Source: Escherichia coli
GTDB lineage: Bacteria; Pseudomonadota; Gammaproteobacteria; Enterobacterales; Enterobacteriaceae
Strand: one strand, 5' to 3'
Length of the DNA: 64,000 bases
Assembly: GCF_041886205.1 (NCBI RefSeq)
Contig: NZ_CP169029.1
Of the stretch, positions 7,400 through 12,541 are shown piece after piece. Position 1 is the first letter of the stretch; the number at the start of each line of letters is the position of its first letter. The translations under genes were made by a program, and so were the position numbers. Under the pieces are notes generated by a model that saw only the letters and a program-made list of their open reading frames with translations, was not told where the DNA came from and ran no database searches.

Positions 7400-7605
7400 C
7401 TAAAGTTGGATGCTTAAGAAATGCTTCATAATTCAGTAAGGCATTAGCATAATGGGAATAAAAGTGCAGAGACCATTCCTATGGTTCTAATACTGCCTTT
7501 TTATTGCCGCCCATAGATGTTCAGTACACCAATACTATAAAATTGATATTGAAATGTACTCCCTTGCTTATTGATACATTATTTTATACGGTTAGTTTGC
7601 TTTTA

Positions 7606-7633
7606 AAAACAACGGGCGTGCTATACGCCTGTT
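7606..7633. repeat. Second copy (26/28 identical) of the icd terminator hairpin sequence
   Basis: AAAACAACGGGCGTGCTATACGCCTGTT versus AAAACAACGGGCGTGTTATACGCCCGTT at 8897-8924. Confidence 0.7.
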
Positions 7634-7778
7634 TCATGGCTTAACCCATATTAATTTTGCTTTATTTTTCATCGCGTTATAAGTTTTTAACCAGCAACGA
7701 GTTATCCTTTACTATAAAGTTCAATAGTTGAGACCTTACCCTCATGTCATGCGTATATTCATTATAATGCTCCTTAGA

Positions 7779-7805
7779 CAAAAAAAGCCAACCATGATGG
7801 TTGGC
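7779..7805 (-). terminator. Intrinsic-terminator-like hairpin (GCCAACCAT/ATGGTTGGC) followed by a U7 tract on the minus strand; no annotated minus-strand gene upstream
   Basis: Seen in sequence. Confidence 0.4.
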
Positions 7806-8024
7806 AAAGTGGCACAAAGTAGCATAAAGGCTATGCTTTAATTACAGAAGGTTCAGTCATTTAAATGTATATCGTTTTATCTAAACAGAACTAAAACGAA
7901 GTGAATGATTTCACTTTTCCACTAAATCTCATTTTGTTTAATCTCTGTTGAGATTCCTTGCTTTAAATTTTGTTTTATAAAACAGTAGCTTTATTTTTTA
8001 ATTGATTTTTAGGTAATATAAAAA

Positions 8025-8279: not shown

Positions 8280-8522
8280 TTGGATTCACTAACTTTATTA
8301 TCAAAATTATTGTCCGAACACTACCTTTCTTACTTATGTTTAATAATAATCACTGCGAATGAGGGGCGCACAACTATATTTTTCTCACACCTGTGATGTA
8401 AAAACACGAGAAAATCCAAATAAAGAACAACATTTGCAATTCCCACCAGATGGATTGCATCACACTTTATTATTCAAAATATTTATCAGCATCATTAAAA
8501 GCCGAAGGATAAGACAAAACAA

Positions 8523-8846
8523 ATGAAGTGGATAGTAATTGACACGGTAATTCAACCTACATGTGGTATATCTTTTTCAGCCATATGGGGTGATATGAAA
8601 ATGATCATCTGGTATCAATCTACTATATTTCTCCCTCCTGGTAGTATATTTAAACCGGTTAAATCTGGTATTATCCTTAAAGATAAAGAATATCCTATTA
8701 CTATTTATAACATCGCACCATTCAACAAGGATTTATGGAGTCTACTCAAAAGCAATCAAGAGTGTCCTCCAGGAGAAAGCAAAATAACAAATAAATGTTT
8801 GCATAATAGTTGCATTATAAAAATATGCCCATATGGGCTCAAGTAA
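8523..8846 (+). CDS. iraM: IraM anti-adaptor protein (RpoS stabiliser)
   Basis: 107-aa [26 protein letters not shown]...; position next to icd. Confidence 0.8.
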
Positions 8847-8896
8847 AGGGTTTAATATAAATATGCTCGATATGCTATTAATAATACCTACATAAA

Positions 8897-8924
8897 TAAA
8901 ACAACGGGCGTGTTATACGCCCGT
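8897..8924 (-). terminator. icd intrinsic terminator (hairpin AACGGGCG...CGCCCGTT followed by a U-rich tract on minus strand)
   Basis: Seen in sequence 25 bp downstream of icd stop. Confidence 0.65.
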
Positions 8925-8948
8925 TGCAATATTAAACACATGTAGTGA

Positions 8949-10199
8949 TTACATGTTCTTGATGATCGCATCACCAAATTCTGAACATTTCAGCAGTTTA
9001 GCGCCTTCCATCAGACGTTCGAAGTCATAGGTTACGGTCTTGGCGTTGATTGCGCCTTCCATACCTTTAACAATCAGGTCTGCGGCTTCAATCCAGCCCA
9101 TGTGGCGCAGCATCATCTCAGCAGAGAGGATGATAGAGCCAGGGTTTACTTTGTCCTGACCGGCATATTTCGGCGCAGTACCGTGGGTGGCTTCAAACAG
9201 GGCGCATTCGTCACCGATGTTTGCGCCAGGGGCGATACCAATACCACCAACCTGCGCTGCCAGGGCGTCAGAAATGTAGTCACCGTTCAGGTTCATACAG
9301 GCGATAACATCATATTCAGCCGGACGCAGCAGGATCTGTTGCAGGAACGCATCAGCGATCACGTCTTTAATGACGATCTCTTTGCCGGTATTCGGGTTTT
9401 TAACTTTCAGCCACGGGCCGCCGTCGATCAGTTCTCCGCCAAACTCTTCACGCGCCAGCTGGTAGCCCCAGTCTTTAAACGCGCCTTCGGTGAACTTCAT
9501 GATGTTGCCTTTGTGCACCAGGGTCACAGAGTCACGATCGTTAGCAATTGCGTATTCGATCGCTGCACGAACCAGACGTTTGGTGCCTTCTTCCGAACAC
9601 GGCTTAATACCGATACCGCAATGTTCCGGGAAGCGAATTTTCTTCACGCCCATCTCTTCACGCAGGAATTTAATCACTTTCTCGGCGTCGGCAGAGTCAG
9701 CTTTCCATTCGATACCCGCATAAATGTCTTCCGAGTTTTCACGGAAGATAACCATATCGGTCAGTTCAGGGTGTTTAACCGGGCTTGGAGTGCCCTGATA
9801 GTAACGTACCGGACGCAGGCAGATGTAGAGATCCAGTTCCTGACGCAGGGCAACGTTGAGAGAACGAATACCGCCACCAACCGGAGTGGTCAGCGGGCCT
9901 TTAATGGCAACGCGATATTCACGAATCAGATCAAGGGTTTCAGCAGGCAGCCAGACATCCTGACCATAAACCTGTGTGGATTTTTCACCGGTGTAAATTT
10001 CCATCCAGGAGATTTTACGCTCGCCTTTATAGGCTTTCTCGACTGCAGCGTCGACCACTTTCAGCATGGCTGGGGTTACATCTACACCGATTCCATCACC
10101 TTCAATGTAAGGGATAATCGGATTTTCAGGAACGTTGAGTTTGCCGTTTTGCAGGGTGATCTTCTTGCCTTGTGCCGGAACAACTACTTTACTTTCCAT
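8949..10199 (-). CDS. icd: Isocitrate dehydrogenase (NADP), native C-terminus with no e14 junction
   Basis: 416-aa [41 protein letters not shown]... Confidence 0.97.
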
Positions 10200-10659
10200 T
10201 CACCTCTCCTTCGAGCGCTACTGGTTTGCTCGTCTGCCACCACGTTGCATATGCGTTTGCGTCCTGCGATACGGATGCTTTAGAGCAATTTTTGTTAATG
10301 ATTTGTAATTGGCTTGTCAATACTACCCTATTGTTTGCCGTCATGAAAGATGCGCGTTATTAGGCTATAATGCGGCAATTCATAATCTGTGAAAATACCA
10401 TGCAAAAAACTTCTTTTAGACCAAAGACAGTATTTTTCAGACCTTCAAATAAGGTATTAAATATCAATAATTTACACCAGATTTTAAGCAATAAAAAAAA
10501 CCACCAGAGATAACTAACAGGGTGCTATTTGGTCAAAATTTGACATTACTCGATTCAGCGACTAACTCACTTTGAGCACTATTGGGAAAATTATCAAAAG
10601 TCATGGTTGAAGCGACAAGCAACGAGTAAATTATGGCATCCACCCTTTTTGAGGTTCAC

Positions 10660-10752
10660 ATGAAACGCTTTGCACTGATAGCTGTGACACTCGTTGCCTT
10701 TACTGGTTCTAGTTCTGCATCTGCTGCAACCGAAGAAATCAACTTCAAGTAA
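10660..10752 (+). other. 30-codon mini-ORF encoding a signal-peptide-like sequence (MKRFALIAVTLVAFTGSSSASAATEEINFK), in frame with the downstream 149-aa ORF but separated by TAA and TGA stops
   Basis: GAGG 5 nt upstream of ATG; frame relationship counted from coordinates (10786-10660 = 126). Confidence 0.4.
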
Positions 10753-10785
10753 CAGAAACACTATATAACAATGAAGTGTTGAAAA

Positions 10786-11235
10786 ATGGATACTACCGAA
10801 GAACGCAATGGAACATATTTCTACAGAGGACACCCGAACCTGTCCAAAATAGAACTACTCAACGTCATATTCCTTGAAGAATTCTGTAAGGAATTGGGGA
10901 TTGATTCGGTATCAGGTGCAGCAATCTTATCTGGTCAACCTTGGCTGGGTACAAGAGCGAAGCCGCAAGGGGCAACCCTGGGAACAAGTGTTGTCTCAAA
11001 GTATGCGCGTATACTGATGAGAGATGCACGCATGCCTTTTGGTATTTCTGTTCATACACCAGTGGGGGTAAGGATGCAGAAATCTAATAAGCTTGCTGCA
11101 ATTATCGCTCGTTGGGTCCCGTGGATTGGTTGGGCTTCACTGTCGATGAGTCTTTACAGGGTTTCGACTCGTACCCAGGAAAAATACAATCTGATTGCCA
11201 AACCTCAAGACCGTATTAAGTGGACTTCCTTCTAA
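10786..11235 (+). CDS. Hypothetical protein (149 aa), hydrophobic C-terminal segment; possible remnant of a secreted protein or toxin
   Basis: Track ORF; no convincing RBS of its own; stop overlaps start of next ORF (TAATG). Confidence 0.45.
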   Translation: MDTTEERNGTYFYRGHPNLSKIELLNVIFLEEFCKELGIDSVSGAAILSGQPWLGTRAKPQGATLGTSVVSKYARILMRDARMPFGISVHTPVGVRMQKSNKLAAIIARWVPWIGWASLSMSLYRVSTRTQEKYNLIAKPQDRIKWTSF

Positions 11236-11570
11236 TGGCGACAACAATCACAGACGAAGTTTTAGCACTGTTCCGTGATGAGATTCCAGGTTATCAGGAT
11301 GACCACGGGAAGGAAATTCCGTTAGAACTGGACTCTGATTTGTTCGACTATCCACGAGATGATATAGAGGACGCTATACGGAAATACAAAGAGAGGTTTG
11401 GGATTAACCTGGATAATCTGGACTGGTCTTTGTACCTTCCGTGGGAGTCTGCACCATTGCTTCAACGATGGTTCAAGCTCAAGCGGGAAGAGGTAGAAAC
11501 AACACGTTTACCGTTAACTGTACGGATGTTTGCAGAATCAGCAGAAGCGGGAAAATGGCTGTATCAGTAG
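11235..11570 (+). CDS. Hypothetical small acidic protein (111 aa from ATG in TAATG overlap; track gives GTG start at 11220)
   Basis: Track ORF; translationally coupled to upstream ORF; hairpin and T-rich tract just downstream. Confidence 0.5.
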   Translation: MATTITDEVLALFRDEIPGYQDDHGKEIPLELDSDLFDYPRDDIEDAIRKYKERFGINLDNLDWSLYLPWESAPLLQRWFKLKREEVETTRLPLTVRMFAESAEAGKWLYQ

Positions 11571-11890
11571 AATAAAAAAGAAGGCTGCGATGCCCTTCTT
11601 ATTACTGCTGATGATGGTAGTGGTAAAGCATCATCCTGAACTTGAACAGTGAAGTGCTGTCACCCATCAGTAATACAGAAACACTATTTTTCATACCAGT
11701 ATTTATTCAATTCATCAATGTAAAATGTGTTCATTGGGCCATATTTATCACCATGCAGCCACACAACCGCTGCTCACTAACCCAGGTATTGATGAAACCG
11801 CGCTGAAGAGCCTGAACCCTGAACCTCTAATGAGTACCTTCAAAGTCCAATGCAATCCGACACTGTGCTACCCTCTGCGTATAGCTCTAT

Positions 11891-12541
11891 TTGGAATTTA
11901 CTATGAAATACTTTAGCGATTCTAAATCTTCTTTTAGAAAAAAACAGGTTAGTCGACTAAACTCGCAACACTCCACTAAGCGTAAACCTGAAAACCAGCC
12001 CACGCGGGTGATCCTGTTCAATAAACCCTACGATGTTCTTCCGCAGTTCACCGATGAAGCCGGACGCAAAACATTAAAAGAATTCATCCCGGTTCAGGGC
12101 GTTTATGCAGCAGGTCGTCTTGACCGCGATAGCGAAGGGTTACTGGTGCTGACCAATAACGGCGCGTTGCAGGCGCGTTTAACCCAGCCGGGTAAACGCA
12201 CCGGAAAAATCTATTATGTGCAGGTGGAAGGTATTCCCACACAAGACGCACTTGAAGCCTTGCGCAATGGCGTAACCTTAAATGATGGCCCTACCCTGCC
12301 CGCAGGCGCGGAGCTGGTTGACGAACCCGCGTGGTTATGGCCGCGGAATCCACCAATTCGTGAACGCAAAAGTATTCCCACCAGCTGGCTAAAGATCACC
12401 TTATATGAAGGACGTAATCGCCAGGTGCGCCGCATGACCGCCCATGTTGGTTTCCCCACGCTGCGACTGATTCGCTATGCGATGGGTGATTACTCTTTGG
12501 ATAATCTTGCCAATGGCGAATGGCGAGAAGCGACAGATTAA
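11891..12541 (+). CDS. rluE: 23S rRNA pseudouridine synthase RluE
   Basis: 216-aa ORF; exact start uncertain (alternative ATG at 11903). Confidence 0.9.

Follow-up and report, generated by a model that had tools for sequence, protein, structure and literature searches.

In the Escherichia coli genome analysed here, the neighbourhood of icd and rluE carries a pair of overlapping genes that is missing from K-12 and whose products are proposed to be a toxin and its cognate immunity protein. The window, a 64,000-nt stretch of contig NZ_CP169029.1 (RefSeq assembly GCF_041886205.1), contains icd on the minus strand (8949-10199) and rluE on the plus strand (11903-12541), and between them lie two plus-strand open reading frames (ORFs), the 149-aa ORF1 (10786-11235) and the acidic, 111-aa ORF2 (11235-11570). 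The stop codon of ORF1 overlaps the start codon of ORF2 in the sequence TAATG (11233-11237). All of these ORF features were present as described in the initial annotation, and its statement that icd and rluE are close neighbours in K-12 was borne out by a distance of 171 bp between the two starts. It assigned neither protein to a family, but both are already named in RefSeq, as "STM2901 family protein" and "DUF1493 family protein", without an assigned function. ORF1 matched the NCBIfam model NF045926 ("STM2901 family") with 156 bits (cutoff, 110), positions 1-140 of the model aligning with residues 8-142, and its homologues are assigned in Pfam to PF26636 (DUF8209). ORF2 matched PF07377 (DUF1493) with an E value of 9.6e-30, model positions 3-107/108 corresponding to residues 4-110.

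The homologues of ORF1 indicated that the gene is full length. More than 60 of them are about 149 aa long and open with MDTTEE.NGTYFY, and the few homologues of 160-171 aa are upstream extensions by gene callers, without a signal peptide. DNA homology to other genera runs from exactly the ATG of ORF1 to the stop codon of ORF2, and the ratio of nonsynonymous to synonymous substitution rates (dN/dS) of the gene pair between genera ranges from 0.04 to 0.09, which indicates strong purifying selection; the stretch is not the ordinary icd region of K-12, which lacks it, and both ORFs have homologues. The ORF1 product is small (16.8 kDa) and basic, with an isoelectric point (pI) of 10.0 (family median, 9.8), and ORF2 has a pI of 4.49 (family median, 4.7) with neither a signal peptide nor a hydrophobic segment. 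Two motifs, MDTTEE at the N-terminus and RPKDRIxWTSF at the C-terminus, are kept in the standalone enterobacterial ORF1 proteins and lie outside the matched region of Rhs-fused and other long forms (profile positions about 9-140); speculatively, they are candidates for Hcp recognition. The AlphaFold model of ORF1, which is of moderate confidence (predicted local distance difference test, 70), consists of two short beta-hairpins and four helices, with a long C-terminal helix at residues 103-137. No match to this model was found in the PDB, no sequence or fold similarity to Tse2 or to solved effectors was detected, and the family has no conserved catalytic His, Cys, or acidic motif. A transmembrane protein was considered and rejected, as the best 19-residue Kyte-Doolittle window (residues 103-121) scored 1.24, below the usual 1.6; the best windows across the family range from 0.94 to 1.73, and a glycine-rich hydrophobic linker precedes the DUF8209 domain in the three Rhs-fused sequences inspected. 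A membrane-directed action of ORF1 is possible but unsupported.

The coupling between the two genes was conserved in the loci examined. The DUF8209 gene preceded the DUF1493 gene in all 44 loci from which both were extracted, and this order was also seen in Serratia, Raoultella, and Erwinia. The overlap measured 1, 4, 7, 16, or 17 nt in 43 of the 44 loci, the exception (locus L051) having a truncated ORF1. Distances among ORF1 homologues and among ORF2 homologues co-varied across 41 loci (r = 0.91; none of 2,000 permutations as high), a correlation that co-inheritance alone would also yield. ORF2 diverges faster than ORF1, and DUF1493-like extra copies follow some of the pairs. Neither protein had a match in PADLOC, no DNA-binding domain was found in ORF2, whose sole match was DUF1493, and both proteins fall into unnamed PHROG families. 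A distant homologue is present in Erwinia phage EtG. A hairpin (11566-11609; dG, -12.3 kcal/mol; z, -3.0) follows ORF2, as had been annotated at first; the 3′ T-rich tract described with it is weak on the plus strand. The hairpin has an A-run on its 5′ side, and the terminator scan scored the minus strand only.

The position of the same domain in longer proteins pointed to exported toxins. A DUF8209 profile search of 1.84 billion representative proteins gave 394 matches, and among the best 150 of these were 34 proteins of 200-787 aa in which the domain lay within 10 residues of the C-terminus. The Rhs-associated core (TIGR03696) was found N-terminal to DUF8209 in six of ten such proteins scanned, one with YD repeats; these Rhs fusions belong to distant bacteria. 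A Foldseek search against AFDB50 independently returned Rhs entries, together with standalone homologues in Burkholderia, Pseudomonas, and Paracidovorax. In Rhs proteins, the C-terminal position after the core is the place of the variable toxin domain. Downstream of one Rhs-DUF8209 gene, found on a metagenomic contig, lies a DUF1493 gene, and downstream of a second lie small ORFs without assignment. In a genome with 66% G+C content (GC), the gene after a standalone DUF8209/DUF1493 pair encodes a Tai4 type VI immunity protein. Four further proteins of 280-430 aa (P0238, P0243, P0265, and P0280) end in DUF8209 but lack an Rhs core, and NCBIfam gave no match for the regions N-terminal to the domain. 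Of the four, P0280 was scanned against Pfam as well, again without a match; it has a lipoprotein-like start (…LLGC). These proteins may represent a different delivery route for the DUF8209 toxin domain.

To describe the genomic surroundings of the pair, 50 loci with ORF1 relatives (one genome per species) and, in addition, Salmonella and Klebsiella loci were searched by tblastn for hcp, ORF1, and ORF2, and linkage to hcp was counted over the 47 loci whose upstream DNA sufficed. In 26 of these, the ORF1 homologue is preceded on its own strand by a full-length hcp of 160 aa that matches TIGR03344 (TssD) and ends 6-14 nt away. Three further loci had only hcp fragments at this position, giving 29 loci with hcp or a remnant, and hcp lay within 8 kb in another eight. 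The fragments, which have internal deletions or truncations and stand directly upstream of intact pairs (L027, 7830-7986; L050, 7830-7988; L039, 4934-5119), look like intermediate stages of the hcp loss that Escherichia and Salmonella show. In Raoultella the genes run toxin, immunity, hcp; in Citrobacter, hcp and the pair make up an island of their own, flanked by the core genes yajR and cyoE; and the Klebsiella module adjoins mutS. The pair occurs without hcp in Escherichia, Salmonella, Serratia, and Erwinia, the Salmonella genes being STM2901/STM2902, next to invH of SPI-1 (pathogenicity island 1). Because it is found at many different chromosomal sites, the pair is evidently mobile. In Klebsiella, Erwinia, Pantoea, Rouxiella, and Mangrovibacter, the hcp genes beside the pair (L019, L021-L025, and L028; about 7507-7988) are 97-99% identical in protein and far more conserved than the neighbouring toxin gene, which suggests either a recent spread of the module or extreme constraint on this Hcp. 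Two Mangrovibacter loci (L040 and L041, 3400-11100) carry arrays of several DUF8209, DUF1493, and hcp copies or fragments in both orientations, which looks like a hotspot accumulating such modules.

Collectively, these data make us fairly confident that ORF1 and ORF2 constitute an intact toxin-immunity pair of the polymorphic-toxin type, linked to Hcp in its relatives and stranded without hcp in this E. coli. The toxin/immunity assignment of DUF8209 and DUF1493 appears well supported by the adjacency of hcp, the C-terminal position in Rhs proteins, the pairing with DUF1493, the gene overlap, the basic and acidic pI values, and the co-varying distances; the coupling of toxin/immunity type that the initial annotation had perceived in the overlap alone was thus strengthened by its retention in 44 loci, by the hcp linkage, and by the Rhs fusions. 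In the mechanism that we propose, ORF1 would be a small basic toxin and ORF2 a small acidic cytoplasmic antidote, its translation coupled to that of ORF1, which would neutralise the toxin through direct binding. In most other Enterobacterales, the pair would be the cargo of a three-gene "orphan hcp" module. The lumen of Hcp accommodates effectors of roughly under 20 kDa, and ORF1, with its 16.8 kDa and the absence of a Sec signal in all homologues, has the size and the lack of a signal expected of such a cargo. Hcp-mediated type VI delivery is accordingly proposed as the most likely route in Enterobacterales, with the toxin most probably riding in the Hcp tube of a T6SS (type VI secretion system), from which it would be fired into bacteria nearby. 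The lack of a signal peptide in the immunity protein would place the toxin's site of action in the cytoplasm of the target or at the inner face of its membrane. In E. coli, the pair appears stranded without hcp; the 1,518-bp unit that carries it interrupts rluE at codon 17, has orphaned the original rluE start, and provides a new ATG. Its likeliest present role there would be a retained immunity against toxin-firing relatives; loading of the toxin onto a non-cognate Hcp is less likely.

Polymorphic toxin/immunity pairs, orphan hcp islands, and small effectors carried by Hcp are all well known, and the locus resembles several such systems in part. Like Tse2-Tsi2 of Pseudomonas aeruginosa, it consists of a toxin of about 150-160 aa without a signal peptide, which would fit the Hcp lumen, followed by a small acidic cytoplasmic immunity gene, and hcp stands immediately beside the pair in most relatives; in contrast to that system, ORF1 resembles Tse2 neither in sequence nor in fold, and hcp is missing beside the E. 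coli copy. With the Rhs/YD-repeat toxins it shares the location of DUF8209 at the extreme C-terminus after the core, once followed by a DUF1493 gene, whereas the domain in the window is a free-standing protein of 149 aa whose MDTTEE and RPKDRIxWTSF extensions are unmatched in the Rhs forms. The "evolved Hcp" (Hcp-ET) effectors, found in E. coli and other Enterobacteriaceae, are fusions of a toxin with Hcp (PMC8262886; bioRxiv 10.1101/2021.10.07.463556). These effectors also occur on orphan hcp islands outside the main T6SS cluster with a toxin and an immunity gene (PMC8262886; bioRxiv 10.1101/2021.10.07.463556), but the DUF8209 toxin has a gene of its own, 6-14 nt downstream of one for a normal Hcp of 160 aa.

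A different origin of ORF1 had been suggested by a mini-ORF of 30 codons plus TAA at 10750 (10660-10752, plus strand), and the features on which that suggestion was built were confirmed: the mini-ORF has a good GAGG site (10651-10654), its product (MKRFALIAVTLVAFTGSSSASA followed by ATEEINFK) shows a textbook n/h/c signal-peptide pattern, it starts 42 codons before ORF1 and shares its frame, and ORF1 has no convincing ribosome-binding site of its own, as a comparison with hcp-linked homologues also showed. An alternative ATG at 10633 would give 39 aa, and the second in-frame stop, placed at 10777 in the initial annotation, is in fact TGA at 10780-10782. On this basis ORF1 was taken as the tail of a Sec-secreted protein of roughly 190 aa, its signal peptide severed by two nonsense mutations and its partner gene kept; the first stop is indeed TAC in Escherichia sp. 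E1V33. That copy, however, is frameshifted upstream and retains the TGA at 10780, and the homologue set refutes the proposal, as no homologue has a signal peptide contiguous with the ORF1 domain: all homologues begin at MDTTEE and are about 149 aa long, the family model is wholly covered by ORF1, DNA homology to other genera opens exactly at its ATG, and it is hcp, not a signal peptide, that precedes ORF1 in relatives. A search for intact versions without the two stops found no fusion of about 190 aa among the homologues and no longer protein with the mini-ORF N-terminus among 5.8 billion protein clusters. Only six relatives of the mini-ORF were found in these clusters, all of 35-48 aa and of the E. 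coli type; they vary by indels in a Ser/Ala tract, and two are frameshifted. The sole outside resemblance of the mini-ORF was a weak match to a SodC signal peptide (E value, 0.047). We therefore regard a decapitated secreted protein as scarcely credible; the mini-ORF is probably the 5′ remnant of some other, unrelated gene for an exported protein and was never part of ORF1. It also seems improbable that the pair is a chromosomal type II toxin-antitoxin module, serving addiction or phage defence and unrelated to secretion, with the hcp linkage due to hitch-hiking. The small size and overlap of the two genes, with one basic and one acidic product, the hcp-free occurrence in Escherichia, Salmonella, Serratia, and Erwinia, the homologue in phage EtG, and the PHROG families of both proteins would be consistent with one. 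Yet Rhs proteins carry the same domain as their C-terminal module, in a place that is set aside for exported toxins, and hcp or its remnant stands 6-14 nt away in 29 of 47 loci; moreover, ORF2 lacks a DNA-binding domain, PADLOC returned no match, and the toxin comes first in the gene order.

The main rival to a stranded cassette kept for immunity is plain decay, in which the E. coli cassette would be a functionless, slowly decaying remnant, its toxin unexpressed and neither gene under selection in E. coli; we judge this unlikely, though it commands more weight than the other alternatives. Several observations on the E. coli copy argue for it and weigh against an active toxin-immunity pair. The island has neither hcp nor an hcp remnant, with nothing better than an E value of 0.8 upstream of ORF1, and no close copy of the cognate-type hcp was found in complete E. 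coli genomes, where the best match covered no more than 65% of the gene, at 68-73% nucleotide identity. ORF1 in the window has no Shine-Dalgarno site, whereas GGAGG/GGTGA spacers are present in the hcp-linked homologues. The two genes have dN/dS values of 0.38 and 0.55 within Escherichia, which rest on only nine substitutions per gene and would be compatible with decay, and truncated, frameshifted, or insertion sequence (IS)-disrupted alleles occur. About 10 of the 47 loci, including those of Escherichia and Salmonella, have no hcp nearby; an AlphaFold model of ORF1, a linker, and ORF2 built on a paired alignment reached a predicted template modelling score of 0.48 and did not raise the confidence of ORF1; and no paper supporting toxicity, neutralisation, or secretion was found in the literature. 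A literature search likewise returned no functional study of DUF8209, DUF1493, or STM2901, of which DUF1493 and STM2901 appeared in gene lists only, and the passages of T6SS surveys that were searched make no mention of the three names. Against decay, 38 of 40 records drawn from the 374 island-bearing E. coli genomes have both ORFs intact, as does a cryptic-clade genome whose flanks have diverged by 4-6%. The genes are also less diverged than their flanks, with 4 differences in 786 nt among four representative strains, compared with about 20 differing alignment columns (indels included) in the 365 nt of the left flank. In IAI39 (L006, 2332-4094), an IS3-family element splits ORF1 and leaves ORF2 intact, which is the pattern expected for a toxin gene lost and an immunity gene kept. 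Finally, because it lies between the old rluE promoter-like site and rluE-nudJ-mnmA, with only the weak hairpin intervening, the island is probably co-transcribed with these genes, which also speaks against a silent remnant. The reading that we retain is that of an effector-immunity cassette that is stranded in E. coli and would now serve, if at all, for immunity.

The initial annotation had placed the cassette in an expanded icd-rluE intergenic region. Alignment with K-12 and other E. coli sequences, by which the bounds of the insertion were defined at 10421-11938, gave a different picture. Sequence upstream of rluE, with a promoter-like site (ATGAAA-17-TATAAT; 10343-10371, plus strand; 10 of 12 consensus matches) and the first 17 codons of rluE (10370-10420, plus strand), is kept upstream of the island with 99% identity to K-12; homology to K-12 breaks after codon 17 and picks up again at 11924. 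Two exact copies of the 11-nt direct repeat CTTCTTTTAGA, 1,518 nt apart (10410-10420 and 11928-11938), bound the island. By this alignment, the 1,518-bp unit has inserted at codon 17, within the 5′ coding region of rluE, and supplies a replacement start; since it lies inside codon 17 and brings a substitute ATG, it does not represent expanded intergenic DNA. The start of the functional rluE in RefSeq is ATG at 11903, within the right end of the island, and not the TTG at 11891 proposed previously; the island end encodes MKYFSDSKS, and SFR of the direct repeat comes next. The site at 10343-10371 may still act as a promoter for the orphaned stump, which continues through 30 island codons as a 47-aa ORF (10370-10513; stop at 10511-10513), and a chimeric peptide of 47 aa would be made if it is active. 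The suggestion that the cassette was acquired horizontally and is missing from K-12 agreed with the K-12 alignment and with the AT-richness that had also been noticed by eye, the insert having a GC of 34-47% compared with about 48-55% in icd and rluE. Within the island, the flanks of the gene pair, 10421-10785 (365 nt) and 11571-11925 (355 nt), have homologues in Escherichia only, and the whole icd-rluE stretch of the window is 100% identical to that of E. coli strain LHM10-1. Immediately beyond the island, a patch of about 40 nt (11941-11979; rluE codons about 13-26) differs from K-12 at 12 positions, the rest of rluE being about 99% identical. The K-12 protein letters over this patch are NHQVKRFSSQRSTR, from which the island-bearing allele differs. 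In E. coli, this patch allele hardly occurs apart from the island, which is carried by 374 of the 376 genomes with at least 95% identity to it, and a third class of allele (60-80% identity) was found in 173 genomes.

No integrase or transposase was found among the island ORFs, of which only ORF1 and ORF2 have homologues, and the repeat scan detected no terminal inverted repeats joining the island ends. An exact 13-nt repeat, ACAGAAACACTAT, brackets ORF1 and ORF2 at a spacing of 923 nt (10752-10764, plus strand, and 11675-11687), and a related 22-mer lies at the left end of the island (10422-10443). The repeat is of marginal significance, its alignment score equalling the best of 200 shuffles, and could mark the boundaries of a nested cassette. 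The left part of the island was not found to be homologous to the right part, as they have just a 13-17-nt motif in common, again of marginal significance. A more specific scenario would have the unit as an autonomous-looking but integrase-less cassette with a replacement start, moved by a recombinase acting in trans on the 11-nt core CTTCTTTTAGA inside rluE in a site-specific manner, with the 13-nt repeats as a nested boundary and DUF8209 as a non-enzymatic toxin of new fold, possibly membrane-directed and countered by an acyl carrier protein (ACP)-like protein; taken as a whole, it is quite doubtful. Prophage e14 integrates at the 3′ end of icd and supplies a replacement end for the interrupted gene. 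The island resembles it in that it interrupts rluE, leaves a stump, gives a substitute in-frame end, and has a short direct repeat and an empty site, but it differs in being just 1.5 kb long, in lacking an integrase or other mobility gene, and in replacing the 5′ and not the 3′ end. In the window, the stretch downstream of icd (8359-8949), where K-12 has the e14 prophage, holds iraM and a very AT-rich stretch (GC, 26-36%).

The island was found at the rluE site in 374 of 5,426 complete E. coli genomes (about 7%) and in Escherichia sp. E1V33. Its precise absence was seen in E. coli HS-02 (NZ_CP172818.1), which has a K-12-type rluE start, one copy of CTTCTTTTAGA, and then the divergent patch (L059, 1465-1600). 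Because HS-02 shows this exact empty site, the 1,518-bp unit is, by comparison of the alleles, a discrete insertion/deletion unit, and both hallmarks of a site-specific element, flanking direct repeats and an empty site lacking one unit, are present. The HS-02 allele is either the product of a precise excision or a pre-insertion allele; the icd and mnmA proteins of HS-02 are identical to those of the island-bearing IAI39. Carriage on plasmids was rejected, as the PLSDB matches are chromosomal DNA mis-filed as plasmids: LN868944.1 (L007) is a 5.37-Mb Klebsiella pneumoniae replicon, and CP125156.1 (L008) is a 728-kb Salmonella Senftenberg record with SPI-1. An identical copy in "Escherichia phage vB_EcoM-689R6" (ON470584.1, L071) was likewise dismissed as phage cargo, being host DNA within a prophage record. 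This record is an e14-like prophage at icd that extends into host icd, the cassette, rluE, nudJ, mnmA, and hflD, and the mini-ORF is annotated in it as a hypothetical protein.

The identification of DUF8209/STM2901 as a polymorphic toxin domain and of DUF1493 as its immunity protein would give a concrete, testable role to two DUF families whose pair is widespread in Enterobacterales, in Salmonella (beside SPI-1), Klebsiella (near mutS), Citrobacter, Enterobacter, and Serratia; if confirmed, it would add a new effector family to the arsenal carried by Hcp. The locus also shows that rluE can exchange its first 17 codons for 9 that the element encodes (MKYFSDSKS), leading into the direct repeat (SFR). 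A variable locus in about 7% of complete E. coli genomes would be explained as a stranded weapon-and-shield cassette, and orphan immunity of this kind can shape the coexistence of enterobacteria in the gut.

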